This document shows positions 31,833 to 58,789 of a stretch of 64,000 bases of DNA, piece by piece; position 1 is the first letter of the stretch; every line of letters begins with the position of its first letter. The stretch lies in NCBI GenBank assembly GCA_049288955.1, contig JBAQIS010000021.1, positions 22,364 to 86,363 on the forward strand, in the 5' to 3' direction. Both the position numbers and the translations under genes were made by a program. The notes beneath the pieces were generated by a model. That model saw only the letters and a list, made by a program, of their open reading frames with translations. It had not been told where the DNA came from and ran no database searches. This stretch comes from Candidatus Saccharimonas aalborgensis (lineage in GTDB: Bacteria > Patescibacteriota > Saccharimonadia > Saccharimonadales > Saccharimonadaceae).

Positions 31833-32216
31833 TTAGGCGAGCTCGACAGTAGCGCCGGCTTCTTCGAGGGCTTTTTTAGCTGTCTCAGCTTCGTCTTTGC
31901 TTACTTTTTCTTTGATGGGGCTTGGTGCGTTGTCGACAAGTGCTTTCGCCTCGCCAAGTCCAAGACCAGTGATTTCTTTGACTGCCTTGATGACGGCAAC
32001 TTTTTGAGCACCAGCATCCTTGAGGGTTACGGTGAATTCAGTTTTTTCGTCAGTAGCGGCACCTGCATCACCACCGGCAACTGGGCCAGCGGCAACGGCA
32101 ACTGCAGCAGCAGCTGGCTCAATGCCATAGTCGTCTTTGAGGATGTTTTTGAGTTCGTTTACTTCGAGGACCGTGAGCTTTGTCAGCTCCTCGGCCAATT
32201 TCTTTACATCTGCCAT
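31833..32216 (-). CDS. rplL: 50S ribosomal protein L7/L12
   Basis: 127 aa; Ala-rich hinge, C-terminal [16 protein letters not shown]. Confidence 0.95.
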
Positions 32217-32267
32217 AACAGAGTTCTCCTTATCGTTTTATTCTGGTAATTCGTTTGGTAAGTGAAT

Positions 32268-32792
32268 CTACGCGGTCGCTTTTGCCTCAACACCATCGAG
32301 AAGCGCATGCAGGTTGCCTGAAAGCGCGTTGGTAACATCGTGTACCGGAGAAAGTAGCTGAGCTACGACTTCGGCAATCAACTGATGTTTGCTTGGTAGG
32401 CTTGCGAGTGCAGTAACATCAGCACTGCTCTGGGCAATACCCTCGCCACTGAAACCGGCGACTAATTCAAGAGCCGGATGAGTTTTTGCAAACTCGTGCA
32501 ATACCTTTGCAGGCATGACTTCGTCGTCAGTGCTAAATGCATAGAGCAGTTGACCAACAAGCGCACTAGTATCGGTGTCTTTGTAGATGTCCTGTGAGCC
32601 CATTGCGACACGGACGAGGCGGTTTTTGACAACCTTGATGGTAACGCCTGCTTCGCGAGCAGCACGCCGCAAGTCTTGGAGGTCTGCGACACTGATGCTT
32701 TGGTACTTGGCGACAGCCGTCCCCTTCGCGTTTGCAAAAAGCTGACTCATTTCACTTACCAAAGCTTGTTTCTTGTCTTTAGAAATTGCCAT
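32268..32792 (-). CDS. rplJ: 50S ribosomal protein L10
   Basis: 174 aa from MAISKDKKQALVSEMS; directly upstream of rplL. Confidence 0.92.
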   Translation of the reverse strand: MAISKDKKQALVSEMSQLFANAKGTAVAKYQSISVADLQDLRRAAREAGVTIKVVKNRLVRVAMGSQDIYKDTDTSALVGQLLYAFSTDDEVMPAKVLHEFAKTHPALELVAGFSGEGIAQSSADVTALASLPSKHQLIAEVVAQLLSPVHDVTNALSGNLHALLDGVEAKATA

Positions 32793-32909
32793 GTGAGTGG
32801 TCAATCCTTTCAGAAGTAAGATCAAATCAGTGATTGGTTAGTGAGCAATTATGACGAGATCCTACGTATTAGCTTTGATATTTTTCGACCATATTGTTAA
32901 GTGACGACA

Positions 32910-33033
32910 ACCTAAGTCTCATTAATTCTCCACTCCAGACAACCGGCCCGCCGCTCACTGATTAGCCTTCGCCTTGGCGGGCCTTGGCCCATCAGGGCCA
33001 ACTGTCTGTCGGAGGAACTGTTGAGATTTAGGT
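32910..33033 (+). repeat. Structured GC-rich repeat, copy A (about 124 nt)
   Basis: Outer stem ACCTAAGTCTCA/TGAGATTTAGGT; core CCACTCCAGACAACCGGCCCGCC...GGCGGGCCTTGGCCCATCAGGGCCAACTGTCTGTCGGAGG shared with copies B and C. Confidence 0.85.
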
Positions 33034-33202
33034 ACGACATTCAGGTAATGAACTAAAAAAGCTTTGGTTCATTACCAAAGACTTGCGGAAAAAGATGAAT
33101 TTCCCCTCGGTAGCGAATTAAGCAATTTCTTGCAGCTACTGTCTTTAGGTAATGTCTAGTCGCTAGTATAGCATGGACGGAGCTACTTTTCAAGTTGCAA
33201 AA

Positions 33203-33329
33203 ACCCGAGTCTCATCCCCTCCCCACTCCAGACAACCGGCCCGCCGCTAACTGAATCAGCCTTCGCTCTTGGCGGGCCTTGGCCCATCAGGGCCAACTGT
33301 CTGTCGGAGGAGGGGTTTGAGGCTTGGGT
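33203..33329 (+). repeat. Structured GC-rich repeat, copy B (about 127 nt)
   Basis: Outer stem ACCCGAGTCTCA/TGAGGCTTGGGT (two G-U pairs on the plus strand only); core 96% identical to copy C. Confidence 0.85.
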
Positions 33330-33356
33330 GTAATATGTGCTATACTACACTTAGAA

Positions 33357-34289
33357 ATGAGCGCTCGTCGGCTAAGCTCCCCAAAGGAGCCACTTCCTCG
33401 TTTTTTTCCGAATTCTGCTCCGGAGACGATAAAAGATGTCATGCGTTCCCCCCTGGTGCTTGATAAACCACCCTTTACGTATCACCCCCTTTCACCAACG
33501 CCACTTGATCCGCATCTCCTCCATATTAAGGGTGGACCACGTTATAACGAGCATGCGCTTAGCTATATGGTTGACGCATCGCGCCAGGTCAGTATGGGTC
33601 GGTTTGCCTCAAATGAGCAGGTGGCAGACTGGATAGGGCATCGACTTGCTACCGTGCCAAATGGTCACGTCAATAGTCTTGGAACAGAGGTGGTAGATAG
33701 CACCTGGATATCGGTTCTCTCGGAGATTATGGCTCAACATGAGCTGAAGCAACATCGTAATGATGCAGCAGTGCGGCTGCTTTTTGATGATACGACCCCT
33801 ATTACTCGAGATGAAGCCGAAGAACTGATGCAGATCAGGGCCGGTATTGCCTCGCCAGAAGTAATCCTCAGGTTTTTTGCCCGGCACCCCGAACTTGGCG
33901 GCGTGGAACTGATGAAAGCAACCCGTGCCTTGCAACCGGAACAAATACGGCAGGCAAGAGATGAGTTTTTGGGTATGCTGGCCACATCATCGGAGGCGCT
34001 CGACATTGAGTTTCTCGATGAGCCTCCCTATCGTCGTATCCAGATTGAAGACCCAAGAATTATCGTGCTCAAGACTCGACTGGCGACCGTGGCGCATAAC
34101 GGTATACTGATGGAAGTCGTGATGCGCGATAGCGGCGTGATTCTTGATCAAGCTCAAGATGACCTTACTACCTCCTACATGACAGGCCGAGACGAGGAGC
34201 GGCGTTCTCTCGTGTATGTTGCGCCCATCGCCATCACTGCTTACGCAAGGATGGCGGCGGTACAGGGTCAGGATGAAGCGAGTAGTTGA
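33357..34289 (+). CDS. Hypothetical protein
   Basis: About 310 aa; the ORF-track start at 33324 lies inside repeat copy B, so the start was moved to the ATG at 33357 (TTGAGG-18-TATACT promoter-like sequence just upstream); start remains uncertain. Confidence 0.5.
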   Translation: MSARRLSSPKEPLPRFFPNSAPETIKDVMRSPLVLDKPPFTYHPLSPTPLDPHLLHIKGGPRYNEHALSYMVDASRQVSMGRFASNEQVADWIGHRLATVPNGHVNSLGTEVVDSTWISVLSEIMAQHELKQHRNDAAVRLLFDDTTPITRDEAEELMQIRAGIASPEVILRFFARHPELGGVELMKATRALQPEQIRQARDEFLGMLATSSEALDIEFLDEPPYRRIQIEDPRIIVLKTRLATVAHNGILMEVVMRDSGVILDQAQDDLTTSYMTGRDEERRSLVYVAPIAITAYARMAAVQGQDEASS

Positions 34290-34912
34290 GATTTTTCTAA
34301 ACGACCGACGATATCGCTGTGAATAGCCTCGATGGAACGGCTAGCGTCGAGTAGAGGAATCTCAAACTCTTTGGCAATTTGTCGATACCCCTCTTGGACA
34401 CGTGTCTGAAAATCCGCCGTTTTTGATTCAAAGGTATCTGGTTTTGCGAGTTTGCCCCGGCTTGCGATACGTTTTTGGCGTGCGGCAATGTCATCAAATG
34501 CTAACACAACACTGAAATCGGGCGACATGTACTGCTTATCGGTGAACGTTGCAGTGATAGCCGAAATAATTGATAGGTCCATGCCCTCTCCGTAGCCTTG
34601 AAATGCCAACGTTGACCAGTAGTTACGGGTGCAAATTACCCATGTGCCGCGTTTGAGCGCAGGTTGGATAACTGCATGCCATAGCTCATGACGATTTGCA
34701 GTGAAGAGCAAAGTATTTGTCATAGGAGTGCGCGGCAACGTTGCATCTAAGATCACACCCCGAATGGCTTCGGCAACTGGTGAGCCGCCTGGTTCCTTGA
34801 TATGGATTGTATCTATGCCGCGTGAATGGAGATAGGTGGCAAGTAGATCGGCCTGTGTCGTTTTGCCAGTGCCATCTTGACCTTCGATCACAATGTAACG
34901 TCCTGCTTTCAC
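34268..34912 (-). CDS. tmk: Thymidylate (dTMP) kinase
   Basis: 214 aa; P-loop IVIEGQDGTGKTTQ; EPGGSPVAEAIR. Confidence 0.9.
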   Translation of the reverse strand: MKAGRYIVIEGQDGTGKTTQADLLATYLHSRGIDTIHIKEPGGSPVAEAIRGVILDATLPRTPMTNTLLFTANRHELWHAVIQPALKRGTWVICTRNYWSTLAFQGYGEGMDLSIISAITATFTDKQYMSPDFSVVLAFDDIAARQKRIASRGKLAKPDTFESKTADFQTRVQEGYRQIAKEFEIPLLDASRSIEAIHSDIVGRLEKSQLLASS

Positions 34913-35631
34913 TAGTTCACTCCCTTTGGCAGCCCCTTGATAGGAGTAGGCATGACACGTGAATCTTTGTAAGCGCGAGGCAGCATATCCTCGGGTTTCC
35001 AGTTTGCAATCAGCTCGTCTAGATTGTCGGTGGATTGATATTTCCCACTCATCCCCTTTCGCCCATCGGCATAGCTTCCAGCGACTGGGCCGGTTTTGAT
35101 GAATACCAACTGACCCATTCGCTCACCGACCGGTAGCACGACGGCCTCATGCTTGTTGAGATTGTAGATTTCGAGGGTAATGCGATTGATGTAGCCGGGG
35201 TCTACCCAGCCGGCATCAAAACAGACGGCCACGCCGTTTCTTCCCCAGGTACTACGGCTACGCACTTCGCAGGCACCACCATGTGCACGGATGCCGACAA
35301 ACTCGTGGGTATGTGCAAGGATGCGTTCACCGGGGCGCAACACGATGATGGGATGGTCGAGGGGGATATTTTTGAGTGGCGTATAGCCATACTGCTTGCA
35401 CCATTCACCGTGTGGCATGGCTTCGAGTGGACCCTTGAAATAGCGAGCAACATCATCTTTGTCGAAGGGATTGTAGACTGAAACGCTCTCATCTACTTCT
35501 TGTTTGTAAAAATAATGCCCCAAGGTAAAATCAAGACTGGCCTCACTGACGTGGTTTTTGTCAAATGGCACGCAGACGATTGTCCCGTCATTGATTGCCT
35601 CAAAAATCTCTGTGTTGCTATACACACTCAT
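34912..35631 (-). CDS. dcd: dCTP deaminase family protein (dUTPase-like fold) with C-terminal extension
   Basis: ASLDFTLG and GWVDPGYINRITLEIYN motifs; start at the second ATG (GGGGAG RBS spacing). Confidence 0.8.
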   Translation of the reverse strand: MSVYSNTEIFEAINDGTIVCVPFDKNHVSEASLDFTLGHYFYKQEVDESVSVYNPFDKDDVARYFKGPLEAMPHGEWCKQYGYTPLKNIPLDHPIIVLRPGERILAHTHEFVGIRAHGGACEVRSRSTWGRNGVAVCFDAGWVDPGYINRITLEIYNLNKHEAVVLPVGERMGQLVFIKTGPVAGSYADGRKGMSGKYQSTDNLDELIANWKPEDMLPRAYKDSRVMPTPIKGLPKGVN

Positions 35632-35650
35632 ACACATACTCCCCTGTCTT

Positions 35651-36454
35651 TTATCTTATTGTAACATGTGTTTTAAGGACGACGATCGAGTGGACTGGTG
35701 ATGGGGTGTGGAACTTCAGCTCCCTCACGAATGCGCTTGATAATGGTGCTCGTTTTCCAATTATCACCAGTTTGGGGATGAGAACGTAGGGGTCGACCCC
35801 ATCGGCGATTAGTACTGGGTTGAGACCGCGATCTCGCGCTTCTTGGACAACTGCGGGTTGTTCGTCAAAGACGACCAGTGTATCGAGCAGCCCGTGACGT
35901 GCCAAAAACTCTGCGAGGATAAGGGATGATTCGAGGCAGGTTTCTTGATGAACCGGATCACCCTCAACGGTGACTAGGTCGATTACGGGAAGAAGTCCAA
36001 TGGTGCTATCAAAGCTATAGCCTGCGACTCGGTTGGCGCGTGTTTCCCATGGATAAATCGGACGCGGTACGCCTCCTTTTGCTTCGACACCACCCTTTTT
36101 TGCTGCAACTTTGTAGTCAGCGTCGACGGTGACGGCAAGTGAAAGTGCGGGTTGCGCAACAGCAGCCTGTAAACTTTCGACCGTGACAGGGTGATTGTGC
36201 GCCTGCAAAAAAGCCCGTGCACCGAGCAAGCGGACGTGCCGTAAATACCATTCATGATTATCGTGCGGGACATCAAAAGCACCATCAACCAGCGTAATAT
36301 GGCTATGACGTATCTCGCGAAGGTGTCGAAATGCGGCAAGCACTACTGCATCCGTATACTCGGGTTCTGGGTAGAGCAGACGCTCGGGCGCACGCAGGGT
36401 CGGCCCAAATACTTCAAATACATCTGGATTTCTATCACCTAACTCACGCGCCAT
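35651..36454 (-). CDS. Cytidylyl/adenylyltransferase-like protein (HldC/TagD-like fold), paralog 1
   Basis: 267 aa; VDGAFDVPHDNHEWYL (compare GxFDxxHxGH), VTVDADYKVAAKKG...RPIYPWETRANRVAGY. Confidence 0.6.
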   Translation of the reverse strand: MARELGDRNPDVFEVFGPTLRAPERLLYPEPEYTDAVVLAAFRHLREIRHSHITLVDGAFDVPHDNHEWYLRHVRLLGARAFLQAHNHPVTVESLQAAVAQPALSLAVTVDADYKVAAKKGGVEAKGGVPRPIYPWETRANRVAGYSFDSTIGLLPVIDLVTVEGDPVHQETCLESSLILAEFLARHGLLDTLVVFDEQPAVVQEARDRGLNPVLIADGVDPYVLIPKLVIIGKRAPLSSAFVRELKFHTPSPVHSIVVLKTHVTIR

Positions 36455-36509
36455 AGCAGTCTCCTCCAGTCACTCTATCGATAGTGCTATGGTACAGATG
36501 ATTTATCGT

Positions 36510-37292
36510 TTAATCAAGGGGGCTGGTGATGGGATGTGGTACGGGTTCACCTTGAGCACGACGAATAAGATCACTACTGCTCCAGGGCCTATCGGTTTGT
36601 GGATTGAGCCCAAATGGTATGTCGTCAGGGTTGATAACGATGGGGTTGAGTCCTGCTTCGGTGGCTTGGGTCAGAGCGGCCGAATGTTCTTTATTGATGA
36701 CAACATTGTCGAGGAGGTCTCTCTCAGCGAGAAATATAGCGAGAGACACAAATGACTCGAGCGCAGTGCCTCGGTGAACGTGATCGCCCTCTACCGTTAC
36801 TAGGTCAGTGGTGGGTACGTAAAGCCCCGATGCTGGCGCAGTTTCAAACGTATAGCCAGCTACCCGATCCGCACGTGCCTGCCATGGATAAATGGGGCGC
36901 TGAACGCCTCCTTTTTCGGCAAATCCACTCTTTACATGGGCGACTTTATGATCTGCGTCGACGGTGATTGCAGTGATAACGTCAGGAGAAATAAGCATAT
37001 TGCGCACCATATCGGGAGTTGGCTCAATGCCTCGTGCTATGAGTGATGCAGCAGCGCCAAGGGCTCGCGTATGGCGAACCATCCATTCGTGGCCGTCGTG
37101 TGGTACGTCAAAAGCTCCATCCGCAAGAGTGATATTGGTATGATCACTGCGTCGACGGAGTGAAGAAAAAACAGCCGTAACAGCTTGGTCGGTCTCTTCT
37201 GGTCTTGGATAGAGTAAACGATCTGGCGAACGAAGGGTTGCGCCAAATACCTGAAATACGTCCCGCTTGTCAGGGGTACCACCAAATGCCAT
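36510..37292 (-). CDS. Cytidylyl/adenylyltransferase-like protein, paralog 2
   Basis: 260 aa; ADGAFDVPHDGHEWMV, ITVDADHKVAHVKSG...RPIYPWQARADRVAGY, C-terminal RPWSSSDLIRRA (compare RxxGxSTTxIIxRI). Confidence 0.6.
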   Translation of the reverse strand: MAFGGTPDKRDVFQVFGATLRSPDRLLYPRPEETDQAVTAVFSSLRRRSDHTNITLADGAFDVPHDGHEWMVRHTRALGAAASLIARGIEPTPDMVRNMLISPDVITAITVDADHKVAHVKSGFAEKGGVQRPIYPWQARADRVAGYTFETAPASGLYVPTTDLVTVEGDHVHRGTALESFVSLAIFLAERDLLDNVVINKEHSAALTQATEAGLNPIVINPDDIPFGLNPQTDRPWSSSDLIRRAQGEPVPHPITSPLD

Positions 37293-37300
37293 AACTACTC

Positions 37301-37756
37301 CTACCGGCTCATCAATATGTGAGGTTTGCGTAAGTATAATACCATATCTATCCGCTTTTTGTCAAGTTTTAACAGATGCGTATGGAGATGTGGCACGGAT
37401 TTTGTAATATTGTCTGGCGAGCGAGTATACAGCGAGTACCCCTCTGACTCATAGGCACATATGAGGTCGATGTATTCGGCGCGCTCGTCATGGTTCATCT
37501 CGTCCATCGAGAGCAGATGGCGCTTGGGCACAATCATGTATTGTTCTCGTACTTTGCATCCCTCCCAGATGTCGTAGCCAAATTGATTATGAGCGAGGCG
37601 AAAATGCTCAAATTCTTTGACTACCTGGGGACTTTCTGAGTTGAATCCACAAAATGCACAGGAGTTGGATTTGACGGTTTTTTTGTATGCCTGGTAAACG
37701 GCTTCATTTTTTGGCTTGCGCGTCATGGGACCGGCCTGGAGAAATCTTCGTTTCAT
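37301..37756 (-). CDS. HIT-family (histidine triad) protein, paralog 1
   Basis: CAFCGF zinc-like motif and VPHLHTHLL triad; start aligned to paralog 2 (MKRRFLQAGP versus MVRPKLQSGP). Confidence 0.75.
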   Translation of the reverse strand: MKRRFLQAGPMTRKPKNEAVYQAYKKTVKSNSCAFCGFNSESPQVVKEFEHFRLAHNQFGYDIWEGCKVREQYMIVPKRHLLSMDEMNHDERAEYIDLICAYESEGYSLYTRSPDNITKSVPHLHTHLLKLDKKRIDMVLYLRKPHILMSR

Positions 37757-37796
37757 TGGCTCCATTGTAGCACTTTTGGTACACTAAAGAGCGACT

Positions 37797-38285
37797 ATGA
37801 AAGAACTCATTGTGGCTTACGATCAAAAACGCGGCATTGGTGCCGACGGTGATTTGTTGTGGCAGCGTGATTTGCCAGGAGATTTAGCCCATTTCAAACA
37901 AATGACGATGGGGAGCTCACTCGTCATGGGTCGTACTACTTATGAGTCAATCGGTCGGCCACTGCCTGGACGAGAAATGATCGTCGTGACGCATCGTCCT
38001 CTCGATGACGAAGGAATTATTGCGGTTCATAGCCTTGCCGAGGCATATACGAAGGCTTCTAGGGAGCGAACGGTGGTGATAGGTGGAGGTCAAATCTATG
38101 AGCAAGCGCTTCGAGAAGGCAGCATTGAGCGTATCCACGCCACCGAGGTCGCGGCAACGTTCCCCGGGGCGACGGTATTTTTCCCAGTACTTGACGCAAT
38201 GTGGCATGAAACGACTCGCGAACATCACGGGTCGAACGAACATGACCGCTATAGTTACGATTTTGTTACCTACGAGCGATCCTAG
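37797..38285 (+). CDS. folA: Dihydrofolate reductase
   Basis: 162 aa; GIGADGDLLW, MGRTTYESIG, VIGGGQIYEQ. Confidence 0.9.
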   Translation: MKELIVAYDQKRGIGADGDLLWQRDLPGDLAHFKQMTMGSSLVMGRTTYESIGRPLPGREMIVVTHRPLDDEGIIAVHSLAEAYTKASRERTVVIGGGQIYEQALREGSIERIHATEVAATFPGATVFFPVLDAMWHETTREHHGSNEHDRYSYDFVTYERS

Positions 38286-39256
38286 ATCGCTACTTGACCC
38301 TTGATCGCAGGATGGTGTTTGTACCCAACAATTTTGAAATCACCAGCTTCAAAGTCGCCGATATCAGTAACGCGTGGGTTTATTTCTAACTTGGGTGCCT
38401 CGTAGAGTTCACCTTCACGGGCCAGTTGCGCTCTCACCTGTTCCTCGTGGTTTTTGTAGATATGGGCACTCCCAAAGGTATGATAAAAATAGCGTGGGGT
38501 GCGGCCAGTAACATGCGCCATGGCCGAGAGTAGCATCGCATACTGCACCATGTTAAATGGTACGCCCAGAAACCAATCAGCGCTCCTCTGGTATAACTTC
38601 ATATCCAAATATTTTTTACCCGTCGTTGGGTCGGTTTTATTTGATGCGTTAAATTGAAATAGCGTATGGCACGGCGGCAATCCGGCTTTGTTCATTTCTT
38701 CGAGATTGCCGACATTCCAGGCACTGACGATCAGGCGACGTCCCATACTACGGTCGTTGGTGCGCAGTGCTTCTTGCACCTGACGCAATTGGTCGATCGG
38801 CTGCCCGTGATAGCCTTCCCAGGCGCGCCACTGATGGCCATAGACCGGCCCTAGATCGCCATACTTATCAGCAAATGTTTTGTCGGTTAGTATTCGCTTC
38901 AAATAGGTGTCTCTCTCTTGTTTCCACTCGTCTGAGCCTTGCTCCGGTACCTCGATGCCTTCACTGCGTAGATACGACACAAACGGCCACTCGTCCCAGA
39001 TGTGATTGTCCTGCTCCGCGAGATAGCGGAGGTTGGTATCGCCGCGTAGCATCCAAGCTAGTTCACTGCGCACAAGTCGGTGCGCGACAAGCTTTGATGT
39101 CAGCAGGGGGAATTCCTCGCGTAAATCGACCCGCATCTGCGGTTCACCGAAGAGGTCGATGGTGCCGACCCCTGTACGATCATCAGTTGGCTCTCCTTCG
39201 TCCAAAATTTTTTTTGCCCAGTGAAGATATTGCAGTTCGGCTCGTGGTTTTTTCAT
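38282..39256 (-). CDS. thyA: Thymidylate synthase (ThyA, long form with about 45-aa insertion)
   Basis: 324 aa; DRTGVGT, LGPVYGHQWR, RRLIVSAWN, PPCHTLFQF (catalytic Cys), YQRSADWFLGVPFN; its stop overlaps the folA stop in CTAG. Confidence 0.9.
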   Translation of the reverse strand: MKKPRAELQYLHWAKKILDEGEPTDDRTGVGTIDLFGEPQMRVDLREEFPLLTSKLVAHRLVRSELAWMLRGDTNLRYLAEQDNHIWDEWPFVSYLRSEGIEVPEQGSDEWKQERDTYLKRILTDKTFADKYGDLGPVYGHQWRAWEGYHGQPIDQLRQVQEALRTNDRSMGRRLIVSAWNVGNLEEMNKAGLPPCHTLFQFNASNKTDPTTGKKYLDMKLYQRSADWFLGVPFNMVQYAMLLSAMAHVTGRTPRYFYHTFGSAHIYKNHEEQVRAQLAREGELYEAPKLEINPRVTDIGDFEAGDFKIVGYKHHPAIKGQVAI

Positions 39257-39435
39257 GTTTCTCCCCTATTTCTATTCATTATAACAATTGTGAGATAGCC
39301 AATCTAGGGGAGTAGAGTCAAGAATTACTTGAAGAATGCCACCATTATTGTATAATAGCTTATGTACAAGAGTACGTCAGGTACCCAGAACGGGTGGTAG
39401 CCATCACTCGTTATACAATCTGAGGAGGAATTGAG

Positions 39436-50481: not shown

Positions 50482-50552
50482 ATATTTCTCATTATGATGC
50501 GTGGTCGGTGCAGTTCCCCACTTGGGAGAACTACACCGACCACATGCTCGTC

Positions 50553-51174: not shown

Positions 51175-52014
51175 ATGAACAAGATGCAGAAGCCAAAGCT
51201 CAGCGGCTTCCGCAAGAAGGCGGCCGAGGGGTTCCTGCTCGGCGCCGTCGTGATCTCCCTCTTTCCGTGGGCGATTACGCGCTGGGTAGTGATTCCAGCT
51301 GTCTGGCTCCTTCTCGTGCTGGAGTTGATCAACGTCTCATCTTGGCACAACAAGCTCTGGGACAGGCTGCCGTGGCGGATGCGGCTCCTGATGGATCGAC
51401 CCCAGTGGCCTGGTGCATCAAGCAGGATCCTGCCGCTGTTTGTCGTCATGACGACGGGGCTGGCGGCGTCGATGCTGTGGCTCTACTCCTCATGGCAGCT
51501 CCTCCTTGTACTGCTGGTCAACGCCGTCTTTACCGATGTGTGGGCCCAGGTGGGTGGCATGTTGGCCAAGAAGCGTGCCATTCGCCAGGGTCGCGCAGCT
51601 CCGAAGCAATTCTCTCCTGACTCGCCCAACAAGACATGGGTAGGTGTGGTGAGTGGTCTTATCGGTGGCGCGCTCAGCGGGTTCGTTGCCGCGTGGGTGC
51701 TGGTGACGTTCTGCGGGCTGGGAATCCCGTGGTTTGTCTACGCACTCATGCTGGGAGGCCCGATCGTGGTGGTCCTGGGCGACCTCTTTGAGAGCCGCCT
51801 CAAGCGCGAGGTAGAAATCAAGGACCTGAGTCGGTTCTTTGGCTCTCACGGTGGGGCCTGTGACCGGCTTGACGGTCTGGCTTCCTACCTCGCGACCGTG
51901 GCTTTGACTATCTACGCGCTGGCGTGCTGGCCGTGGTGGATCTGGCTGCTCGTCGCTGCCTGGGATGCAATCGTCATTCGCGAGCTCATGCGCCCGCGGC
52001 GCCGCACGACCTGA
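51175..52014 (+). CDS. Phosphatidate cytidylyltransferase (CdsA) family membrane protein (about 63% GC)
   Basis: 279 aa; SPDSPNKTWVG (compare SPxKTxEG) and ESRLKREVEIKDLSRFFGSHGGACDRLDGL (compare the CdsA signature); GAGGTGA RBS. Confidence 0.65.
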   Translation: MNKMQKPKLSGFRKKAAEGFLLGAVVISLFPWAITRWVVIPAVWLLLVLELINVSSWHNKLWDRLPWRMRLLMDRPQWPGASSRILPLFVVMTTGLAASMLWLYSSWQLLLVLLVNAVFTDVWAQVGGMLAKKRAIRQGRAAPKQFSPDSPNKTWVGVVSGLIGGALSGFVAAWVLVTFCGLGIPWFVYALMLGGPIVVVLGDLFESRLKREVEIKDLSRFFGSHGGACDRLDGLASYLATVALTIYALACWPWWIWLLVAAWDAIVIRELMRPRRRTT

Positions 52015-52034
52015 GGAGGAAACAAGAAAGAGCA

Positions 52035-52058
52035 ACTCGGGTGTCCCAGCACCCGAGT
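52035..52058 (+). terminator. Hairpin after the CdsA-family gene
   Basis: ACTCGGGTG-tcccag-CACCCGAGT followed by CTTTCTTTATCT. Confidence 0.5.
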
Positions 52059-52071
52059 CTTTCTTTATCTG

Positions 52072-52186
52072 TGCCTCCCCCCTCCCCACTCCAGACAACC
52101 GGCCCGTCGCTAACTACATCAGCCTTCGCTCTTGACGGGCCTTGGCCCATCAGGGCCAACTGTCTGTCGGAGGAGGGGTTGAGGCA
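52072..52186 (+). repeat. Structured GC-rich repeat, copy C (about 115 nt)
   Basis: Core matches copy B with 4 substitutions in 100 nt, two of them a compensatory pair in the 8-bp stem (GCC/GGC to GTC/GAC). Confidence 0.85.
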
Positions 52187-52268
52187 TAGCCTCTATATAA
52201 TTGACAAAACAATTATAAAAGTATACTATATATTATACCTAACCCCGAGTAGAATAAGAGGACTCCTT

Positions 52269-52796
52269 ATGGGACGTTTTGAGGCTCCGAATGGGCACGA
52301 CTTCTGGCTCGTCCAGGAGATCTGCAACAACCCACACAATCCCGCGACGTGGAACTTCATGGACACGCTATCGGTCTCGCCGATGCCTGCCACCGAGTTC
52401 CAGGGTGGCCGACTCGAGCAAGAGCTGGCCAGCCTGCGCGTTGAGCACCCCGGTGAGTTTATCACCATGGGGGCTGTTATCAGCGTTGCTGATGTCAGCC
52501 GGACCGTGTTCCTCGTCTGCCCTATCCGGGCCCTGCATGGGCTCGTGGACGATTTCGAGCAGTGGTTCAGGGATCCGACGGAGGTCATCCACCGGACCAA
52601 GGTCCCGACCCGGTTCGGACACGCGTTCCTCAATAAGCAGCACCTCCATGGTGTCAACGCGGCCGACAGCGGATCGTACAATGGTCGCATCGTCGCCTGG
52701 TGGTCGCTCGAGGACCAGGTGTTCTGGACGCTGGATGCCATGATCGCGCGCCACATCTGTTCGTGGCTGAACGGAGAGGAGTTCACCGAGGGGTAA
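52269..52796 (+). CDS. Hypothetical protein (175 aa, about 60% GC)
   Basis: AAGAGGA RBS 6 nt before the ATG; TTGACA...TATACT promoter-like sequence at 52203-52230; no motif recognised. Confidence 0.55.
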   Translation: MGRFEAPNGHDFWLVQEICNNPHNPATWNFMDTLSVSPMPATEFQGGRLEQELASLRVEHPGEFITMGAVISVADVSRTVFLVCPIRALHGLVDDFEQWFRDPTEVIHRTKVPTRFGHAFLNKQHLHGVNAADSGSYNGRIVAWWSLEDQVFWTLDAMIARHICSWLNGEEFTEG

Positions 52797-52824
52797 GCAA
52801 ACCCCGCACTGCATTCACAAGCTC

Positions 52825-52861
52825 ATGATGAGACCCCGGATGCGCTGCGGGGTCTCATCAT
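52825..52861 (+). terminator. 14-bp stem hairpin after the 175-aa ORF
   Basis: ATGATGAGACCCCG-9 nt-CGGGGTCTCATCAT. Confidence 0.5.
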
Positions 52862-52874
52862 GCCCAATATCAAA

Positions 52875-52910
52875 ACTACCTCTCTGGTATAGAGAGGTAG
52901 TCCTTTTTTT
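52875..52910. terminator. Bidirectional intrinsic terminator (serves rplK on the minus strand)
   Basis: ACTACCTCTCT-ggtat-AGAGAGGTAGT flanked by an A-run and a T-run. Confidence 0.7.
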
Positions 52911-52923
52911 GAAAACGAACTGA

Positions 52924-53349
52924 TTAGTCGGTGACTTCGACGCCCATACTGCGTGCAGTACCAGCGATGACCTTGACCGCACCATCCATGTCGATGGCAT
53001 TGAGCTGTTTCATCTTGGTTTCGGCGATTTCTTCGAGTTGCTTGCGAGAGATTTTGCCGACTTTCTCTGTGTGTGGTTTGCCGCTGCCTTTTTTGATGCC
53101 GATCTTTTCGCGGATCATGTCGTCAACGGGTTGGCCGAGACTTTTCCACGCAAAGGTGCGATCTTCGAACACCTGAATGTGAACGATGACGTCCTTGCCT
53201 ATCATATCTTTGGTTGCTTCGTTGAATGGATTGATAAAATCCATCATGTTGAGGCCCCACTGACCGAGCGTGCTTCCGACTGGAGGACCAGCGGTGGCGC
53301 GACCTGCGGGGATGCGGAGCTTCAAGTTACCGATAACTTGTTTTGCCAT
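52924..53349 (-). CDS. rplK: 50S ribosomal protein L11
   Basis: 141 aa; PAGRATAGPPVGSTLGQWGLNMMDF. Confidence 0.95.
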   Translation of the reverse strand: MAKQVIGNLKLRIPAGRATAGPPVGSTLGQWGLNMMDFINPFNEATKDMIGKDVIVHIQVFEDRTFAWKSLGQPVDDMIREKIGIKKGSGKPHTEKVGKISRKQLEEIAETKMKQLNAIDMDGAVKVIAGTARSMGVEVTD

Positions 53350-53415
53350 AGTTTGATTAACTTTCCTTGATTACTAAATATAATGTGAAGCAAATATTTA
53401 GTGCGTAACAGATGA

Positions 53416-53444
53416 ATTATACCTGATCGGGGTTATTTTTGCAA
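53416..53444 (-). promoter_or_regulatory. Near-consensus promoter for rplK
   Basis: Minus strand TTGCAA-17 nt-TATAAT, about 65 nt upstream of the rplK ATG; overlaps the 3' end of the upstream CDS. Confidence 0.55.
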
Positions 53445-54509
53445 GCGTGACTGGGAGATGGCTCGTTCGGCGGTTTGTCCCAATACAAGGCAACTCCGAT
53501 CGCGCGGAAGTGCTTCGAGCGCTTTGTCCATCGGCCAAAATGAGGGACTGCTCTGACCGAGGGTGGTGTTTTCGAAGCAGCCAAGCTCAGCAGCAATCCG
53601 AACCGGTCCCGCGATGCCATGTGTTTTTGCCGCTAGCTGGTCGTAGCGTGCGATGAGACGCTGGAGGAGAGGTACAACAATGCTACCGCCATAGTGCCCC
53701 ACTGCCGATAGATCATTGCGATCAATTTCGGGGTATGGCAACTCGATGCGAAACTTTTGGCCATCGCCATTGCCGAGTTCCATACTTTGTCCGCCGACAC
53801 GCGCGACTTCTTCGTCAAAGACGGCGCGAATTTGATCGAGAAAATCGCGCAATAGCGGATAATCTTTTGCCGCTGCTTCGGTCGAATGGCTCATATCCCA
53901 CATCAATATGTAGGCATTTGGTGTGGTAGGTACGTCTAGCAAGAGCTTGTCGGCGAGCGAGTAGTAACCCTGCCCGAGGGTATCGAGTTGCGCAGTGGAT
54001 GCCTGAATTGCTTGGTGGTATTGCTGCCACAACTGGCGAAGCTGTAGCTCGCTCGGAAGCTTGCCATGCTCGGGCGAAAAAGCAAATTGAAAGACAGCCT
54101 CACCCTCACGTTCTAGCGCGAGCGGCATGCCAAAAACGATATGTTGCTCTGGGTTCATGAGACTCGGCGCAAACTCAGATCGACCAGTACGAAATGTCTC
54201 ACCGACCCGAGAGGCAACGAGGTCGACGCGTCGACCATTGATATTCGTTCGCTGGAAGTCAAGTCGTGCATCATCGATCGCAGGTGCATTGATGGCGGTA
54301 ATCGCCGCAGCCGAGTCACTATACCAGCGGTCACGCATAAATAGCACAACACCGTCAAATGCAGCGCATTGCCCGAGAGAGCGCACCACAGGATCAACGG
54401 CAGTGTAGATATCGCCGATCGCCTGGACGAGATCGGGTCGCTCTGCCCGTAAGTACTGTTCGTGACGGTTCGCCCGCTCCGGATTATTGGTGTCTGCTGA
54501 CCAAATCAT
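53433..54509 (-). CDS. Class III nucleotidyl-cyclase-like protein with N-terminal sensor-like domain
   Basis: 358 aa; YILMWDMSHSTEAA (compare FxDxxGFT), ELGNGDGQKFRIE (compare KxxGDA), PVRIAAELGCF (compare RIGIHxG); Asn/Arg transition-state residues not evident. Confidence 0.5.
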   Translation of the reverse strand: MIWSADTNNPERANRHEQYLRAERPDLVQAIGDIYTAVDPVVRSLGQCAAFDGVVLFMRDRWYSDSAAAITAINAPAIDDARLDFQRTNINGRRVDLVASRVGETFRTGRSEFAPSLMNPEQHIVFGMPLALEREGEAVFQFAFSPEHGKLPSELQLRQLWQQYHQAIQASTAQLDTLGQGYYSLADKLLLDVPTTPNAYILMWDMSHSTEAAAKDYPLLRDFLDQIRAVFDEEVARVGGQSMELGNGDGQKFRIELPYPEIDRNDLSAVGHYGGSIVVPLLQRLIARYDQLAAKTHGIAGPVRIAAELGCFENTTLGQSSPSFWPMDKALEALPRDRSCLVLGQTAERAISQSRLQK

Positions 54510-54546
54510 AATACAAACTATATCCTAAAAACGGGTATTTTGCAAG

Positions 54547-55320
54547 CTAGCGGCGTTTAACGCGGTCAGCAATAATCGACCCTGCCGCTATCCCAACTGC
54601 AATGGTAATGGCTTGTCCAGCTGCTTTCCCGAGACTGATCAAGGCATCTTTGGCTCGCTCACGTCGTAGTTCAGCAGCTTTCTTACCCTCAGCGTCCTCT
54701 AGATCTGGAGCGCAATCAAAGATTTGTTCAAAAAGTTCATTGAGTTCAGCCATTTGGCCTTCAACAAGCACGTCAACAATTGCTGAGGCACTCCTCGGCG
54801 TCGATTCATGCAGATAGATGTCGAGCAAATCTTCGACAAATGATTTGATTTTTTCTTTTGTGATCAACTCGGTTGAATCATACTTGTCCGAAAGCGCCGC
54901 AAAATACTCATTGATATCTGAGAGATTGTTGTAGAGAATTGTTGTGAGCTCCTGGAGCAAGGTTTCGGTACTCTCGGATTGTAATACGACTTCAGCAATT
55001 AGTTTCGAAAGGGCGACATGGTATTGCTTTTTCATAGCAACGGCACGTCTTTCGAGTTCATCGATGTGCTGCATGTCCGGATAGGCAAATCGGTCGCACA
55101 CTACTTCGCAAACGGTAGCTCTCGCCTCATCAAGTTCTGCCAAATACTGCGCATACCGAGACACTTCCTCGTCAGTGATAGGAAGCTCGATCGGATCCTC
55201 AAGACCAGCGATAGCTTCATGGATTCCCGCAAGCGGGCCCGACGTAATATTGACCGGCTCTTTACGAGTTATCGGCTCCTCTGGTTTATCGGCTGAAGGG
55301 GGCATTTCTGCAACCGTCAT
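54547..55320 (-). CDS. Acidic all-helical protein with a single C-terminal TM anchor
   Basis: 257 aa from MTVAEMPPS (AAGGAG RBS); C-terminus AITIAVGIAAGSIIADRVKRR. Confidence 0.55.
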   Translation of the reverse strand: MTVAEMPPSADKPEEPITRKEPVNITSGPLAGIHEAIAGLEDPIELPITDEEVSRYAQYLAELDEARATVCEVVCDRFAYPDMQHIDELERRAVAMKKQYHVALSKLIAEVVLQSESTETLLQELTTILYNNLSDINEYFAALSDKYDSTELITKEKIKSFVEDLLDIYLHESTPRSASAIVDVLVEGQMAELNELFEQIFDCAPDLEDAEGKKAAELRRERAKDALISLGKAAGQAITIAVGIAAGSIIADRVKRR

Positions 55321-55376
55321 GGTGGAACTCCTTTTGCTCCACGATACCATAAACAGGCTTATTTATCCACAGCCAC

Positions 55377-55405
55377 TTGACAAAATGGCAAAAGTGTGCT
55401 AGCAT
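55377..55405 (+). promoter_or_regulatory. Promoter about 540 nt upstream of the ABC exporter start
   Basis: TTGACA-17 nt-TAGCAT with TGC extended -10. Confidence 0.45.
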
Positions 55406-55946
55406 GGATCCAGCGTTACATCTTGCAAATCAACACGTGTAGTTTAATTTGAGCAATCAGGCGACCCCCGCCCCTGTTTCTTGGCCCTCGGCCAAGACGT
55501 TCATTGACGTATGCCGATAATAAAAAGTCAAAGGCACGAATGAATCGTCACTGACAGACTCTTGGTGGGTTTTCCTGATACTCATATAGCTACGCGAGAT
55601 GAACGCAACATCACACCAAAAAGTTGACTGACCGCATGTCGGCTTGCACCTCAACAAAACTGCAAGGTGTAATGACAATAACGTTAATGGAAAGGATTTA
55701 AGTCGGATGTTAATTATTACATTTATGTCAGCGGGCGAGTAAGTCATCATTTGTGAGGTAATCTCAATCTTGCAAATGTACTTCGCCTGCTATCACCATA
55801 GAGGCCTATCACGTTTTCGAAATTGATAGTAGCTCCAAAACCCCTGTGGTTCCCTGCCCTTTGAGTGCTGGCGTTTTTTTGGCAGCCGAATTCGGCAGGC
55901 AATCACCCTGACAATGAACCAAACAACAAAACAGAAAGGAGGAGGT

Positions 55947-57737
55947 ATGCTTATCGCAGACCTGAAAGCGATTTTGGCGGAAATGCGTCAAGATCCGACC
56001 GTTGCTCCTGAACTACCTGTGGTAGCACGTGCGATTCGACGTACGTTTGCCTGGGAGGTTCTCAGCGAGCTGCTCCAAGTCCTTCAGTCCGTACCAGTGA
56101 TGTTTTTTACGAATGAACTGGTTCGCCCGGGGCCGGAGAGCCCTCGAAACATCGCGCTTGTCGCACTCAGTTTCGCTGTTCTTTATAAAGTAAATCAGCT
56201 TGTCGCCAATCGTATGGGCCTGCATCGTAATGATGTGTTTTGGGGCTCATGGCGCGTTTGGTGGGGCTATGGCAATCGTCGACTGCTCCGCCAGAGTACC
56301 GACTGGCACACAGCTCACAGTACTGGTGAGAAAGATTCGTTGATCGGCAAAAATATCGGACGGTTCCAAGAATTGTTTGATGAAGCGCTGTTCAATACGA
56401 TCCCAGTACTGCTGCGTATCAGTCTGACGACGGCGTTTATGTTTGTGCTTGGCTGGCAATTCGGTCTCGTGGCTATCGTGACGATGGTGCTCTATGGCTA
56501 TGTCCTGACACGGACAGAGCGAACCATGCACCCTCACCGCGAAGAGTTTCAGACACGCATGAAGCAAGTCGAGGACAATGGCAGTGAATTGACGCGCAAT
56601 TGGCGGACAATTCGGACGCTTGGTCTCGAGGAACACTTCAGTGATCGCAACGAAGTACTGTTGCGCGACTTTTGGCACGATGAGTACCCTCGTCACCAGA
56701 CCTGGGCTCGTTGTATCTCGCGTCAGGACGATATCTTGATAGTGAGTCGAGCGTCACTCTATCTTGTGCTGGGCCTTGTTGCTTTACGTTCAGGCAGCAG
56801 TGAAGCCATCGGTTCGCTGATCCTGGCAACGACATGGATGGAGCGTGCCTATAGCAATTACTGGCGTCTGAGTGACTTCCAGCGATTGCTCGGACGCGGA
56901 CAAGAGGCGCTCAGAGAGCTAGTCGCGTTTTTGGCGCTCAAGCCGAGTGTCACCAACACTGATCAACCACGCTGGCCGCGCCGCGTACGCGGAACCGTCA
57001 GTTTCCGAAATGTGTCGTTTGCCTATCCAGGTGATTCGAGAGAATCGACTATTTCACAGTTCGATCTGCGCGTTCCTGCACACACCTCGCTGGCTTTTGT
57101 TGGCGAGAGTGGCAGCGGCAAATCGACGCTGATGCGTTTGCTCGCACGTGAGTACGACCCCTGTGTCGGCAGCATTACCGTCGATGGTATTGACCTACGT
57201 GATATCGACTATCGGCGCTATCGTCATGAGTTGATTGCTGTCGTGAGCCAGACGATCGAGCTATTTGATCGCACCATCGCAGACAATATTCGTATTGCTC
57301 GGCCTGACGCGACGATGGACGAAGTCATCGAGTCGGCGAAGGCTGCCGGTGCGCATGAGTTCATCATGGCGACAGATCACGGATACGACAGTCGGATCGG
57401 TGAAGATGGTCTGACACTTTCGGGTGGTCAACGCCAGCGACTCGCGATTGCTCGCGCGTTGCTGATGAAGCCAGCGATCTTGATTTTGGACGAAGCAACC
57501 TCGGCACTCGATGCAATGAGTCAGGCAGAAGTCCAGGCCACTATCGACGGGCTGATACAGCAACGAGTGTGCACGGTGTTCATCATCGCCCATCGTCTTA
57601 GCACTATTCGCGATGCCGATCGCATCGTGGTGATGCACAAGGGGCAGATGGCTGCCAGCGGGACTCACAAAGAGTTACTCTCGCACAGCGCCATCTATCG
57701 TCGGATGAATGGTCTCGAGAACGGTTCTCACTCCTAA
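55947..57737 (+). CDS. ABC transporter, fused permease/ATPase (MsbA-like exporter)
   Basis: Start moved to the ATG after AAAGGAGGAGG; Walker A GESGSGKSTL, signature LSGGQRQR, Walker B ILILDEATS. Confidence 0.9.
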   Translation: MLIADLKAILAEMRQDPTVAPELPVVARAIRRTFAWEVLSELLQVLQSVPVMFFTNELVRPGPESPRNIALVALSFAVLYKVNQLVANRMGLHRNDVFWGSWRVWWGYGNRRLLRQSTDWHTAHSTGEKDSLIGKNIGRFQELFDEALFNTIPVLLRISLTTAFMFVLGWQFGLVAIVTMVLYGYVLTRTERTMHPHREEFQTRMKQVEDNGSELTRNWRTIRTLGLEEHFSDRNEVLLRDFWHDEYPRHQTWARCISRQDDILIVSRASLYLVLGLVALRSGSSEAIGSLILATTWMERAYSNYWRLSDFQRLLGRGQEALRELVAFLALKPSVTNTDQPRWPRRVRGTVSFRNVSFAYPGDSRESTISQFDLRVPAHTSLAFVGESGSGKSTLMRLLAREYDPCVGSITVDGIDLRDIDYRRYRHELIAVVSQTIELFDRTIADNIRIARPDATMDEVIESAKAAGAHEFIMATDHGYDSRIGEDGLTLSGGQRQRLAIARALLMKPAILILDEATSALDAMSQAEVQATIDGLIQQRVCTVFIIAHRLSTIRDADRIVVMHKGQMAASGTHKELLSHSAIYRRMNGLENGSHS

Positions 57738-57897
57738 AGTCTAGTGTGGTTCGTGTCAGATAATCGAAGAGAGGAGCCTGCAAGATGCCTCCGTGGACTG
57801 AGTTCCACGGAGGCTATTGCTTGGGTAAATAAAGTGGTAACGATATGAAGTACACCGCCTTCCAAAGAGGCGGTGTACTGATATCTTGATACTTGTG

Positions 57898-58446
57898 TTA
57901 GACTTTTTTGACTTGCAGCGCGTCGAGCTCGACGGGCGTGTCGCGGCCAAACATGCTGACCATGACCTTGAGCTTACCCTTTGCAGTGTCGATTTCACTT
58001 ACGGCGCCATCAAAGCCCTTGAATGGTCCATCGGTGATGTTGACCACTTCTCCCGGCTGGAAGTCGATCTGATGCTTGGGGTCCTCGACACCCATACGTT
58101 TTTTGATCTTTGAGATCTCTGCGTCTGAAACAGGCGTTGGCTCAGTACCACTACCGACAAACCCAGTCACGCCAGGTGTATTACGGACAATGTACCATGT
58201 CTCATCGGTTAGTTTCATCTCGACGAGTACATAGCCTTGGAATATCTTGGCCTCAACGACTTTTCGTTTGCCGTTTTTGATCTGAATCTGCTTTTCCTTT
58301 GGCACCATAGCGTCAAAGATCTTGTCTGCCATATCGACAGCCTGAATACGCTGTTTGATTGCATCGGCGACTTTTTCTTCGTAGCCGCTATAGGTGTGGA
58401 TTGCGTACCATTGACGAGTACCATCATATCGATTCTTGTGTGCCAT
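57898..58446 (-). CDS. nusG: Transcription termination/antitermination factor NusG
   Basis: 182 aa; WYAIHTYSGYEEKV NGN domain, KOW GEVVNITDGPFKGFDG. Confidence 0.95.
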   Translation of the reverse strand: MAHKNRYDGTRQWYAIHTYSGYEEKVADAIKQRIQAVDMADKIFDAMVPKEKQIQIKNGKRKVVEAKIFQGYVLVEMKLTDETWYIVRNTPGVTGFVGSGTEPTPVSDAEISKIKKRMGVEDPKHQIDFQPGEVVNITDGPFKGFDGAVSEIDTAKGKLKVMVSMFGRDTPVELDALQVKKV

Positions 58447-58447
58447 G

Positions 58448-58789
58448 TTATTTCCTCAAAATAATGTTAAACAAATATTGAAAACCTGCGTCGAGTAGCA
58501 AAATAACGACGACAAAAAACGCAGTAAAGAGCAGCAGCGCGCCCGTCATCGCCCAGGTGGTGCGCCGGTCTGGCCAGCGAACTTGACGGAGCTCATACCA
58601 TGAACCCTTTAGGTACCGCCAGATAGCGAAAAATGGATTGCGAGTACGTCGTACTAGCTTGTCGCCATCGTCACTCACTACCTTCCGTGTCCTTTTGGGC
58701 GCTACTGGTTTTTTTGATTTTTTTGAACCACTATCATTTGCTTTAATGCGCGTGATCTTGGGTGTTGATGATTTTGCTGGTGTCGCCAC
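58448..58789 (-). CDS. secE: Preprotein translocase subunit SecE (basic N-terminal extension)
   Basis: LRQVRWPDRRTTW followed by a single TM helix; start uncertain (GTG at 58789 or TTG at 58843). Confidence 0.8.
   Translation of the reverse strand: MATPAKSSTPKITRIKANDSGSKKSKKPVAPKRTRKVVSDDGDKLVRRTRNPFFAIWRYLKGSWYELRQVRWPDRRTTWAMTGALLLFTAFFVVVILLLDAGFQYLFNIILRK

Follow-up and report, generated by a model that had tools for sequence, protein, structure and literature searches.

The question raised by this locus is whether the secE-nusG-rplK-rplA-rplJ-rplL gene cluster of a member of the Saccharibacteria was broken up recently, by insertion of foreign DNA, or long ago, as a property of its lineage. 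The locus lies in a stretch of 64,000 nucleotides (nt) of Candidatus Saccharimonas aalborgensis DNA (contig JBAQIS010000021.1 of assembly GCA_049288955.1, positions 22,364 to 86,363; hereafter the window, from whose first letter all coordinates are counted unless a locus label precedes them). Here the six genes are kept in order, but are divided into four pieces by three long spacers. An earlier note on this DNA, made from the letters alone, read the spacers as three accessory islands at a landing site for acquired DNA. Our analysis leads to a different reading, which we consider probable: the cluster underwent an ancient, lineage-typical dismantling into four separately controlled units, and was not interrupted by three recent islands. 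What stands of the earlier proposal is that sub-blocks of two of the spacers do turn over, whereas the split itself appears to be old and the third spacer largely ancestral.

Pfam matches to all six genes bear out the gene order, the minus strand and the positions given in the earlier note. The first unit consists of secE (58448-58789, within an open reading frame (ORF) of 58448-58843; SecE, 3.2e-14; GTG start at 58789) and nusG (57898-58446; NusG, 1.1e-30), which closes it. These are followed by rplK (52924-53349; L11), rplA (41448-42446, ORF 41448-42494; L1, 4.3e-58, with the L1 domain at residues 151-339 of the ORF), rplJ (32268-32792, ORF 32268-32825) and rplL (31833-32216). The shorter starts adopted earlier for secE (58789), rplA (42446) and rplJ (32792) are the better choice, because the longer ORFs start just 5-14 nt past predicted -10 boxes; the internal starts are also favoured by the Shine-Dalgarno sequences present there and by the L1 homologues, which measure about 333 aa and nearly all of which are 321-336 aa long. 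The N-terminus of L1 is a K/A/E-rich extension of about 115 aa (42102-42446), which is shorter in a gut/oral clade, and the total length of 321-336 aa is kept in the 120 closest homologues. The three spacers measure 4548 nt between nusG and rplK (spacer A, 53350-57897), 10477 nt between rplK and rplA (spacer B, 42447-52923) and 8655 nt between rplA and rplJ (spacer C, 32793-41447), in agreement with the 4.5, 10.4 and 8.6 kb estimated before. In almost every Saccharibacteria locus rplL is followed by a gene for a 171-aa protein without Pfam match (29560-30075 in the window; 66-94% identity), which takes the position where rpoB follows in many bacteria.

We considered whether the interleaved order could be an artefact of assembly or binning, that is, a chimeric metagenome-assembled contig. 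Contigs from all metagenomes end at a high-copy structured repeat within the locus, and a sister population (runs X4 and X8), which does not differ from the window as far as 33.0 kb, departs from it by 2-5% past 33.3 kb. Nevertheless, this explanation is extremely improbable, and we rejected it, because a closed genome and independent contigs agree on the arrangement. The L1 protein of the window shares 98% identity with its counterpart in S. aalborgensis, whose genome is public as assembly GCA_000392435.1. Positions 31764-56152 align by blastn with CP005957, a closed genome, in identical gene order and with nucleotide identity of about 94-96%. In addition, a 41.9-kb ENA contig covers 38392-52225 at 99.94% identity, and in run X1 zero-mismatch contigs of equal depth flank the structured repeat on both sides.

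The distribution of the split was examined in a scan of species-representative genomes anchored on L1; among the matches listed there were 19 Saccharibacteria loci and about 60 loci of Firmicutes, Fusobacteria and other bacteria, and none from other phyla of the candidate phyla radiation. Gap lengths were measured by tblastn with the window proteins. As had been stated in the earlier note for most bacteria, the roughly 60 non-Saccharibacteria loci among these matches keep the six genes contiguous: their rplK-rplA gap is at most 307 nt in all of the roughly 59-60 loci listed, and no more than 2 and 3 loci have a gap above 400 nt between nusG and rplK and between rplA and rplJ, respectively, so that the wide gaps of the window are not due to chance. 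In Saccharibacteria, the rplK-rplA gap exceeds 310 nt at 18 of 24 loci, the rplA-rplJ junction is enlarged or rearranged everywhere except in locus L002, and rplK or rplJL is inverted in several loci. A neighbour-joining tree built on NusG, L11 and L1 from 25 Saccharibacteria loci yields a basal clade I (L012 and L014-L018), L002 alone, a Saccharimonas-like clade III and a gut/oral clade IV. The four-piece layout secE-nusG / rplK / rplA / rplJ-rplL, followed by the 171-aa gene, is found in L085, L088, L090 and L091, at 75-81% L1 identity, and overall in all sampled Saccharimonas-like relatives (75-98% L1 identity), S. aalborgensis included. The split thus belongs to the lineage and is most pronounced in the Saccharimonas-like clade. 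The earlier note had proposed an alignment across relatives as its check, and had named an interleaved order with orthologous, compositionally native genes as the outcome that would speak against insertions. The four-piece order proved common to the sampled clade III loci, and this outcome is largely what we see for the architecture and for one of the spacers.

Each of the four units appears to carry its own control signals, where promoters and terminators are predictions from consensus-match scans. secE is preceded by a near-consensus promoter-like TTGACA-17-TATACT at 58876-58848, and the secE-nusG unit ends at hairpins at about 57840-57870 and 57787-57814, common to the convergent ABC transporter gene of spacer A. 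The rplK unit (52875-53444, minus strand) comprises a promoter-like site, a leader of about 60 nt, the coding sequence and a terminator. The near-consensus promoter TTGCAA-17-TATAAT proposed earlier is matched by the promoter-like site at 53444-53416, and a 12-bp bidirectional hairpin with T-tract (52901-52875) comes right after the stop codon, so that rplK is likely monocistronic. Joint transcription of rplK and rplA and their joint regulation by L1 are disfavoured by this terminator, by the promoter-like site and L1-type leader that rplA has of its own, and by the rplK leader, in which a GGGAG site is missing. The rplK leader (53350-53409, minus strand) contains GUUACGCAC and then a hairpin, often with GCUUCA in the loop. 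This motif follows a -10 box at almost every Saccharibacteria locus, even where nusG and rplK directly adjoin each other, and the leader is seen upstream of rplK in L002, L008, L013, L015, L016, L018 and L085-L091. Its stems differ by clade (ACUAAAUAU/AUAUUUAGU, ACUCG/CGAGU, ACUCC/GGAGU and ACGUUU/AAACGU), with covariation limited to four or five stem types. The leader has no L1-type GGGAG site and no match in Rfam, even at E up to 10, and is a candidate for an undescribed cis-regulatory RNA.

The rplA unit (41448-42540, minus strand) begins with a promoter-like CTGACA-17-TATACT with extended TG at 42540-42512, followed by an L1-type leader, the Shine-Dalgarno sequence GGAG and the coding sequence. 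The TATACT box had been noted before, together with an AT-rich leader; the box is there, but the leader is a conserved, structured L1-type element and not simply AT-rich. It lies at 42491-42458, 11 nt before the ATG, and has the form UCGGGAG-hairpin-GCUACUACCGC, in full UCGGGAG-GUGAU-CGA-AUCAC-CGCUACUACCGC. The L1-type motif is present before rplA in 22 of 22 aligned Saccharibacteria loci. In this alignment the six tested pairs are 99.2% paired with 27 compensatory cells, a result equalled by 0 of 500 shuffles, and pairing falls sharply when the register is slid. L1-interacting RNAs directly before rplA have been described in Actinobacteria, Cyanobacteria, Chloroflexi, many Firmicutes (as a second site) and Methanococcus (Fu et al. 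2013, PMC3616713). A structural comparison with these finds a stem, an internal loop with G-A and an unpaired A, and a second stem directly before rplA, that is, the same short stem/GA-containing internal loop/stem, with an invariant GGGAG core and covariation in the flanking helices. Unlike in the described cases, rplA and rplK are not linked here, which recalls the archaeal condition, and rplA has a promoter-like site to itself; L1 binding is a prediction. The leader finds no Rfam match, even at E up to 10. Downstream, no terminator separates rplA from an SDR gene; the gap is 20 nt, and gaps within rplA-SDR-HIT are 20-26 nt.

The rplJ-rplL unit (31615-33320, minus strand) is composed of copy 2 of the structured repeat, a promoter-like site (33193-33165), the L10 leader, repeat copy 1, rplJ, rplL and a strong terminator (31641-31615). 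The L10 leader (33167-33046) matches Rfam RF00557 with 49.7 bits against a gathering score of 44, and six relatives have it too (47-67 bits), 36-90 nt from rplJ. In the window this distance is about 250 nt, because repeat copy 1 is inserted in the 5' untranslated region. A terminator-like or attenuator-like hairpin is found at the 3' end of the leader (33080-33062), and the repeat in the 5' untranslated region would be tolerable only if the L10 leader acts by attenuation.

Spacer C, with its thymidylate module, appears to be largely old. Downstream of rplA it carries the SDR gene (40525-41427), a HIT gene (40046-40498), the GC-rich orf173 (39436-39957, plus strand), thyA (38282-39256), folA (37797-38285, plus strand), a second HIT gene (37301-37765), two paralogous HxGH nucleotidyltransferase-like genes (35651-37292), dcd (34912-35637), tmk (34268-34912) and hyp321 (33324-34289, plus strand). 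The SDR, HIT, thyA, folA, dcd and tmk assignments come from Pfam, and that of the nucleotidyltransferase-like genes from weak NCBIfam hints; the latter two genes are 53% identical to each other, and the two HIT genes 40%. In clade III, spacer C always contains thymidylate/deoxypyrimidine genes, namely thyA and folA (thyX in L088), dcd, tmk and HIT, and additionally NUDIX, dCMP-deaminase or nucleotidyltransferase genes. The module lies at the matching place in L085, L088 (with thyX), L090, L091 and the clade I loci. Clade I has rplA-(dNMP kinase)-dcd-tmk::thyX-...-rplJ, co-oriented, with gaps of at most 63 nt in L012 and L016 and about 160 nt in L018, and dcd and the tmk::thyX fusion are found between rplA and rplJ in L012 and L016-L018. 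The module genes have native composition (z of the G+C content at third codon positions (GC3) within about 1.5) and synonymous divergence (dS) of 0.05-0.25 from S. aalborgensis. Because an orthologous, native module occupies the same position and orientation even in basal clade I, the core of spacer C would be largely ancestral or very old, with thyX replaced in place by thyA and folA. Together with the four-piece order at 75-81% L1 identity, this native module in the basal clade argues against three recent insertions.

The Tmk::ThyX fusion proteins of the basal Saccharibacteria are 764-804 aa long and are encoded after dcd at L012 13138-15552, L016 7178-9532, L017 12247-14583 and L018 11705-13999, and a stand-alone thyX is located at L088 12102-12992, where the window and S. 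aalborgensis have thyA and folA, a non-orthologous displacement in place.

Spacer B shows both conserved anchors and turnover. In order from rplK, it contains hyp290 (52272-52796, plus strand), a CdsA-like gene (51175-52014, plus), tRNA-Pro(CGG) (50971-51047, minus), hyp109 and hyp139 (49974-50882, minus), a pilus operon (46392-49819, minus) with three N_methyl pilins and a 597-aa RCC1-repeat protein with prepilin-like N-terminus, VanY (45456-46310, minus; Pfam), the PT-rich membrane protein hyp246 (43545-44285, plus) and hyp298 (42518-43414, minus). The tRNA-Pro, the pilus operon and the nucleotide-metabolism module, which the earlier note had placed inside the spacers, were all found there by tRNA scan and Pfam. 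In other clade III lineages spacer B is 2.3-6.8 kb long, with tRNA-Pro (L081, L088, L091), VanY (L085, L088, L091) and the CdsA-like gene (L088) as recurrent anchors and a lineage-variable remainder. By blastn breakpoints, the pilus block (46334-49908) is a clean 3575-nt indel relative to S. aalborgensis, between hyp139 and VanY, and no flanking direct repeats were found at its junctions. The pilus operon is present in several wastewater contigs (L093-L098), but not at this position in L085, L088, L090 and L091. At the rplA end of the spacer, a contig from metatranscriptome run X26 has 23 nt in place of hyp298 (window 42529-43487), indicating that some strains are without this gene, which lies directly upstream of rplA. 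In the low-coverage ENA contig L082 (5278-6267), L1 is identical to that of S. aalborgensis, but truB-rpsO-Ham1 and an IS30-like (HTH_38) gene lie upstream of hyp298-rplA; either this strain is rearranged or the contig is chimeric.

Spacer A contains the ABC transporter gene (55914-57737, plus strand; Pfam), a gene for a 267-aa protein with no function assigned (54547-55350, minus) and one for an orphan 358-aa protein, hyp358 (53433-54509, minus). Across clade III its length is 0.4-4.5 kb; the ABC transporter and the 358-aa protein have counterparts in L085 only, at the same position, and the gene content is different in L088, L090 and L091. The earlier reading of hyp358 as a cyclase-like module finds some support at the level of the predicted fold, but not at that of sequence profiles, as the protein has no match in Pfam, NCBIfam or PDB sequences. 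An AlphaFold2 model made from a four-sequence alignment (predicted local distance difference test score 74) matches GAF-cyclase proteins in Foldseek at E 7e-5, and its template modelling score against the cyclase homology domain of Rv1900c is 0.56-0.61. This model supports a GAF domain and a class III cyclase homology domain at fold level only. The protein is an orphan restricted to its lineage, with no more than four clusters of homologues among 5.8 billion sequences. A search of PDB sequences with orf173 of spacer C gave nothing significant, and a reading of the unassigned spacer genes as defence systems was dropped, PADLOC and NCBIfam matches being at noise level only.

Outside the six-gene interval, a strain-specific block of 1.6 kb (30205-31763, minus strand) follows the rplL terminator. 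It carries a gene for a pyridoxal phosphate-dependent enzyme (30587-31582; Pfam PALP), and is missing between rplL and the 171-aa gene in S. aalborgensis and most relatives.

Composition and divergence single out sub-blocks rather than whole spacers. The majority of spacer genes have a native composition (GC3 z within about 1.5). Strong outliers, with z above +4 and GC3 of 0.72-0.87 compared with 0.50 ± 0.05, are orf173, hyp246, hyp139, hyp109, the CdsA-like gene and hyp290, and it is these six genes that make up the GC-rich blocks. The earlier note had placed all high-GC blocks in the intervening DNA; this is true for the main ones (39.4-40.0, 43.5-44.8 and 49.9-52.9 kb), but smaller ones are also found at 14.0, 31.2 and 46.5 kb. 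The outlier genes are truly coding, with ratios of nonsynonymous to synonymous divergence of 0.17-0.31. Between the window and S. aalborgensis, hyp246, hyp139, hyp109 and hyp290, along with the GC-normal hyp298 and hyp321, have dS of 0.27-0.73, compared with 0.05-0.17 for their neighbours. The homologues of the CdsA-like protein jump from 89% to about 40% identity, the next-best being the CdsA of Sphingomonadales. These GC3-outlier or fast-diverging sub-blocks would be the best candidates for acquired or recombined DNA.

The structured repeat is a further source of variation. Its three copies, which the earlier note had correctly assigned to the intervening DNA, are located at 32894-33025, 33187-33320 and 52079-52183 (copies 1 to 3), with further copies at L081 7616-7740 and L095 5795-5901; it is found only in loci of the S. 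aalborgensis group. The repeat is about 105-130 nt long and is predicted to fold into a long stem with a three-way junction (fold z-scores -4.1 to -5.6), and has no Rfam match, even at E up to 10. Its depth in wastewater DNA metagenomes is 200-350 compared with about 9 for its flanks, and contigs exit from it into many flanks, which suggests about 25-35 copies per genome. Copy 3 is missing in CP005957. Conversely, the window has no insertion at position 44878, where CP005957 carries a solo repeat and L095 and L096 carry 1182 nt of repeat plus an rve (DDE) transposase. The repeat behaves like miniature inverted-repeat transposable elements (MITE) or repetitive extragenic palindromic (REP) sequences in that it is present in many copies, folds stably with inverted complementarity at its ends and occupies sites that vary between strains; like these dispersed repeats it is short, high-copy and polymorphic in position, with the rve transposase adjoining a copy in sister strains. 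Over about 2.5-33.0 kb the strain in runs X4 and X8 shows no difference from the window, but from 33.3 kb onward it is 2-5% diverged; this drop in identity between 33.0 and 33.3 kb points to a breakpoint, by recombination or in a mosaic, around the repeat and the L10 leader (about 32986-33288).

Could the three spacers nevertheless be horizontally acquired, relatively recent islands at an integration hotspot in a formerly contiguous cluster? Such an origin would fit the variable spacer content among relatives, the presence or absence of the pilus operon and PALP block between genomes about 95% identical, the insertion sequence (IS) and repeat insertions that are polymorphic in sister strains, and the lack of relatives of the CdsA-like protein between 89% and about 40% identity ahead of Sphingomonadales. 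It would also fit the tRNA-Pro of spacer B, which is flanked by GC3-rich orphan genes with high dS and in this resembles the setting of tRNA-associated genomic islands. Unlike such islands, however, the spacers of the window have no Pfam match to an integrase or recombinase and no att-like direct repeats: there is no tRNA 3'-end duplication of 14 nt or more, the pilus indel is without flanking direct repeats, and the tRNA-Pro was rejected as an att site because no tRNA-derived repeat of 14 nt or longer occurs in 44-52.5 kb. Atypical composition combined with presence/absence was seen in sub-blocks only. Relatives with 75-81% L1 identity share the four-piece architecture and the anchor genes, the core of spacer C is orthologous, native and in the same place in the basal clade, and this locus may change no more than the rest of the genome. 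Variant density was tried as a test, but DNA contigs of four wastewater runs over 1-60 kb gave no clear spacer enrichment: variants in these runs cluster at tRNA-Gln, tRNA-Pro and the repeat, and also occur at 6.3, 20-21 and 26 kb. The spacers as wholes are not islands, because their backbone genes are old and native, and we regard a recent hotspot origin of all three as unlikely, although not negligible. The tRNA-Gln site (12284-12488) has a 33-nt partial self-duplicate 127 nt away, and several alternative junctions in metagenome contigs mark it as a second hotspot of structural variation in the window.

A different explanation holds that the accessory and metabolic genes are retained for read-through from the strong ribosomal-protein promoters, coupling them to growth rate, as the earlier note had also suggested in proposing that they are selected to sit in highly transcribed operons. 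The region downstream of rplA is compatible with this, as the SDR and HIT genes follow without terminator at gaps of 20-26 nt, L088 and L091 likewise have a HIT gene downstream of rplA, the rplA-dNMP kinase-dcd-tmk::thyX genes of clade I are tightly spaced and co-oriented (gaps of at most 63 nt in L012 and L016, about 160 nt in L018), and an RNA-derived contig spans 40326-42179. In contrast, rplK has its own terminator and convergent or divergent neighbours on both sides, and both secE-nusG and rplJL end at strong hairpins, so the idea is weakly supported, being plausible for rplA but not for the insulated rplK and secE-nusG units. The co-orientation of most island genes with the ribosomal genes, also noted earlier, is real (about 19 of 26 island genes; 25 of 32 ORFs in the region, 78%) but equals the background of the window (19 of 26, 73%); we rejected it as a sign of selection, given that it matches the minus-strand bias of the remaining ORFs. 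Metatranscriptome contigs over 31-45 kb (runs X25, X26, X27 and X29) have flat, low depth across ribosomal and neighbouring genes, and DNA carry-over is possible. Overall, read-through would be a plausible route of expression only downstream of rplA, and as a general reason for the arrangement we consider it improbable, more so than the hotspot.

Returning to the ancient dismantling into separately controlled units, we propose the following course of events. In Saccharibacteria the cluster would consist of four units, secE-nusG, rplK, rplA and rplJ-rplL, each with its own signals, and control would reside at each gene, with the L1 site at rplA rather than ahead of rplK. Since control sits at each gene, DNA may accumulate at the three junctions without breaking ribosomal-protein regulation; separate regulation would in this way make the junctions permissive. 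These slow-growing episymbionts, under relaxed selection on operon compactness, may have exploited such a divisible cluster. The rplA-rplJ junction was presumably occupied early by dcd, tmk and thyX (later thyA and folA), together with HIT and nucleotidyltransferase genes, and has been maintained by vertical inheritance and in-place replacement, with the SDR and HIT genes probably co-transcribed with rplA. The nusG-rplK and rplK-rplA junctions expanded in the Saccharimonas-like clade, where the old anchors (ABC transporter, tRNA-Pro and VanY) were kept, but the remainder turns over through gain of the pilus operon, GC3-rich orphans near tRNA-Pro, and repeat and IS insertions.

Several points weigh against this reading. 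The promoters and terminators on which the separate units are based are known as consensus matches only. The sampling is thin, and the tree is a rough neighbour-joining tree of three proteins from 25 Saccharibacteria loci. The ancestral placement of the thymidylate module is a matter of parsimony; L002 and the gut/oral clade are without the module, so that two gains are possible. Gene-proximal regulation permits but does not cause the split, because Firmicutes have an L1 site before rplA and yet a contiguous cluster. Finally, these junctions may change no faster than the rest of the genome; structural variants are also found at 6.3, 12.3, 20-21 and 26 kb of the window.

The locus shares with the canonical secE-nusG-rplKAJL(-rpoBC) cluster of E. 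coli, Vibrio and Bacillus the six genes, their order and strand, and the L10 leader before rplJ. It differs from it in the three spacers of 4.5-10.5 kb, in that rplK and rplA probably do not form an operon, in lacking an L1 site ahead of rplK, and in having the 171-aa gene rather than rpoBC after rplL. In archaea, rplK is unlinked from rplA, and rplA-rplJ-rplL is an L1-regulated operon in Methanococcus vannielii (PMC3616713). The window resembles this condition in the separation of rplK from rplA and in the L1-type site at rplA; unlike in M. vannielii, rplA is also apart from rplJL, which retains the bacterial L10 leader. Conservation of the cluster is documented, with only a separation of rplKA from rplJL noted, in Bradyrhizobium and Actinomyces (bioRxiv 10.1101/2025.04.14.645983). 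We found no description of the present split in Saccharibacteria or Patescibacteria in the literature searched.

The locus reveals neither a new kind of mobile element nor a new mechanism, and is of moderate relevance for specialists in genome architecture and ribosomal leaders. It does provide leads, including the candidate new rplK leader RNA, an L1-type leader missing from Rfam, and a mobile structured repeat with which strains of wastewater Saccharimonas can be typed. A bolder and rather doubtful possibility is that Saccharibacteria rewired ribosomal-protein control into single-gene units, in which the rplK leader would sense L11 or another factor and dcd-tmk-thyX ancestrally stood directly downstream of rplA. 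If true, the supply of dTTP in these host-dependent bacteria would be tied to ribosome production through L1 feedback and the rplA promoter. Our results suggest that moving autoregulation to each gene makes the cluster divisible. Here, rplK and rplA are unlinked as in archaea, and a thymidylate module is fixed between rplA and rplJ. Few gene arrangements in bacteria are as conserved as secE-nusG-rplKAJL, and a whole lineage of phylum level that routinely splits it therefore reveals which of its linkages are dispensable.

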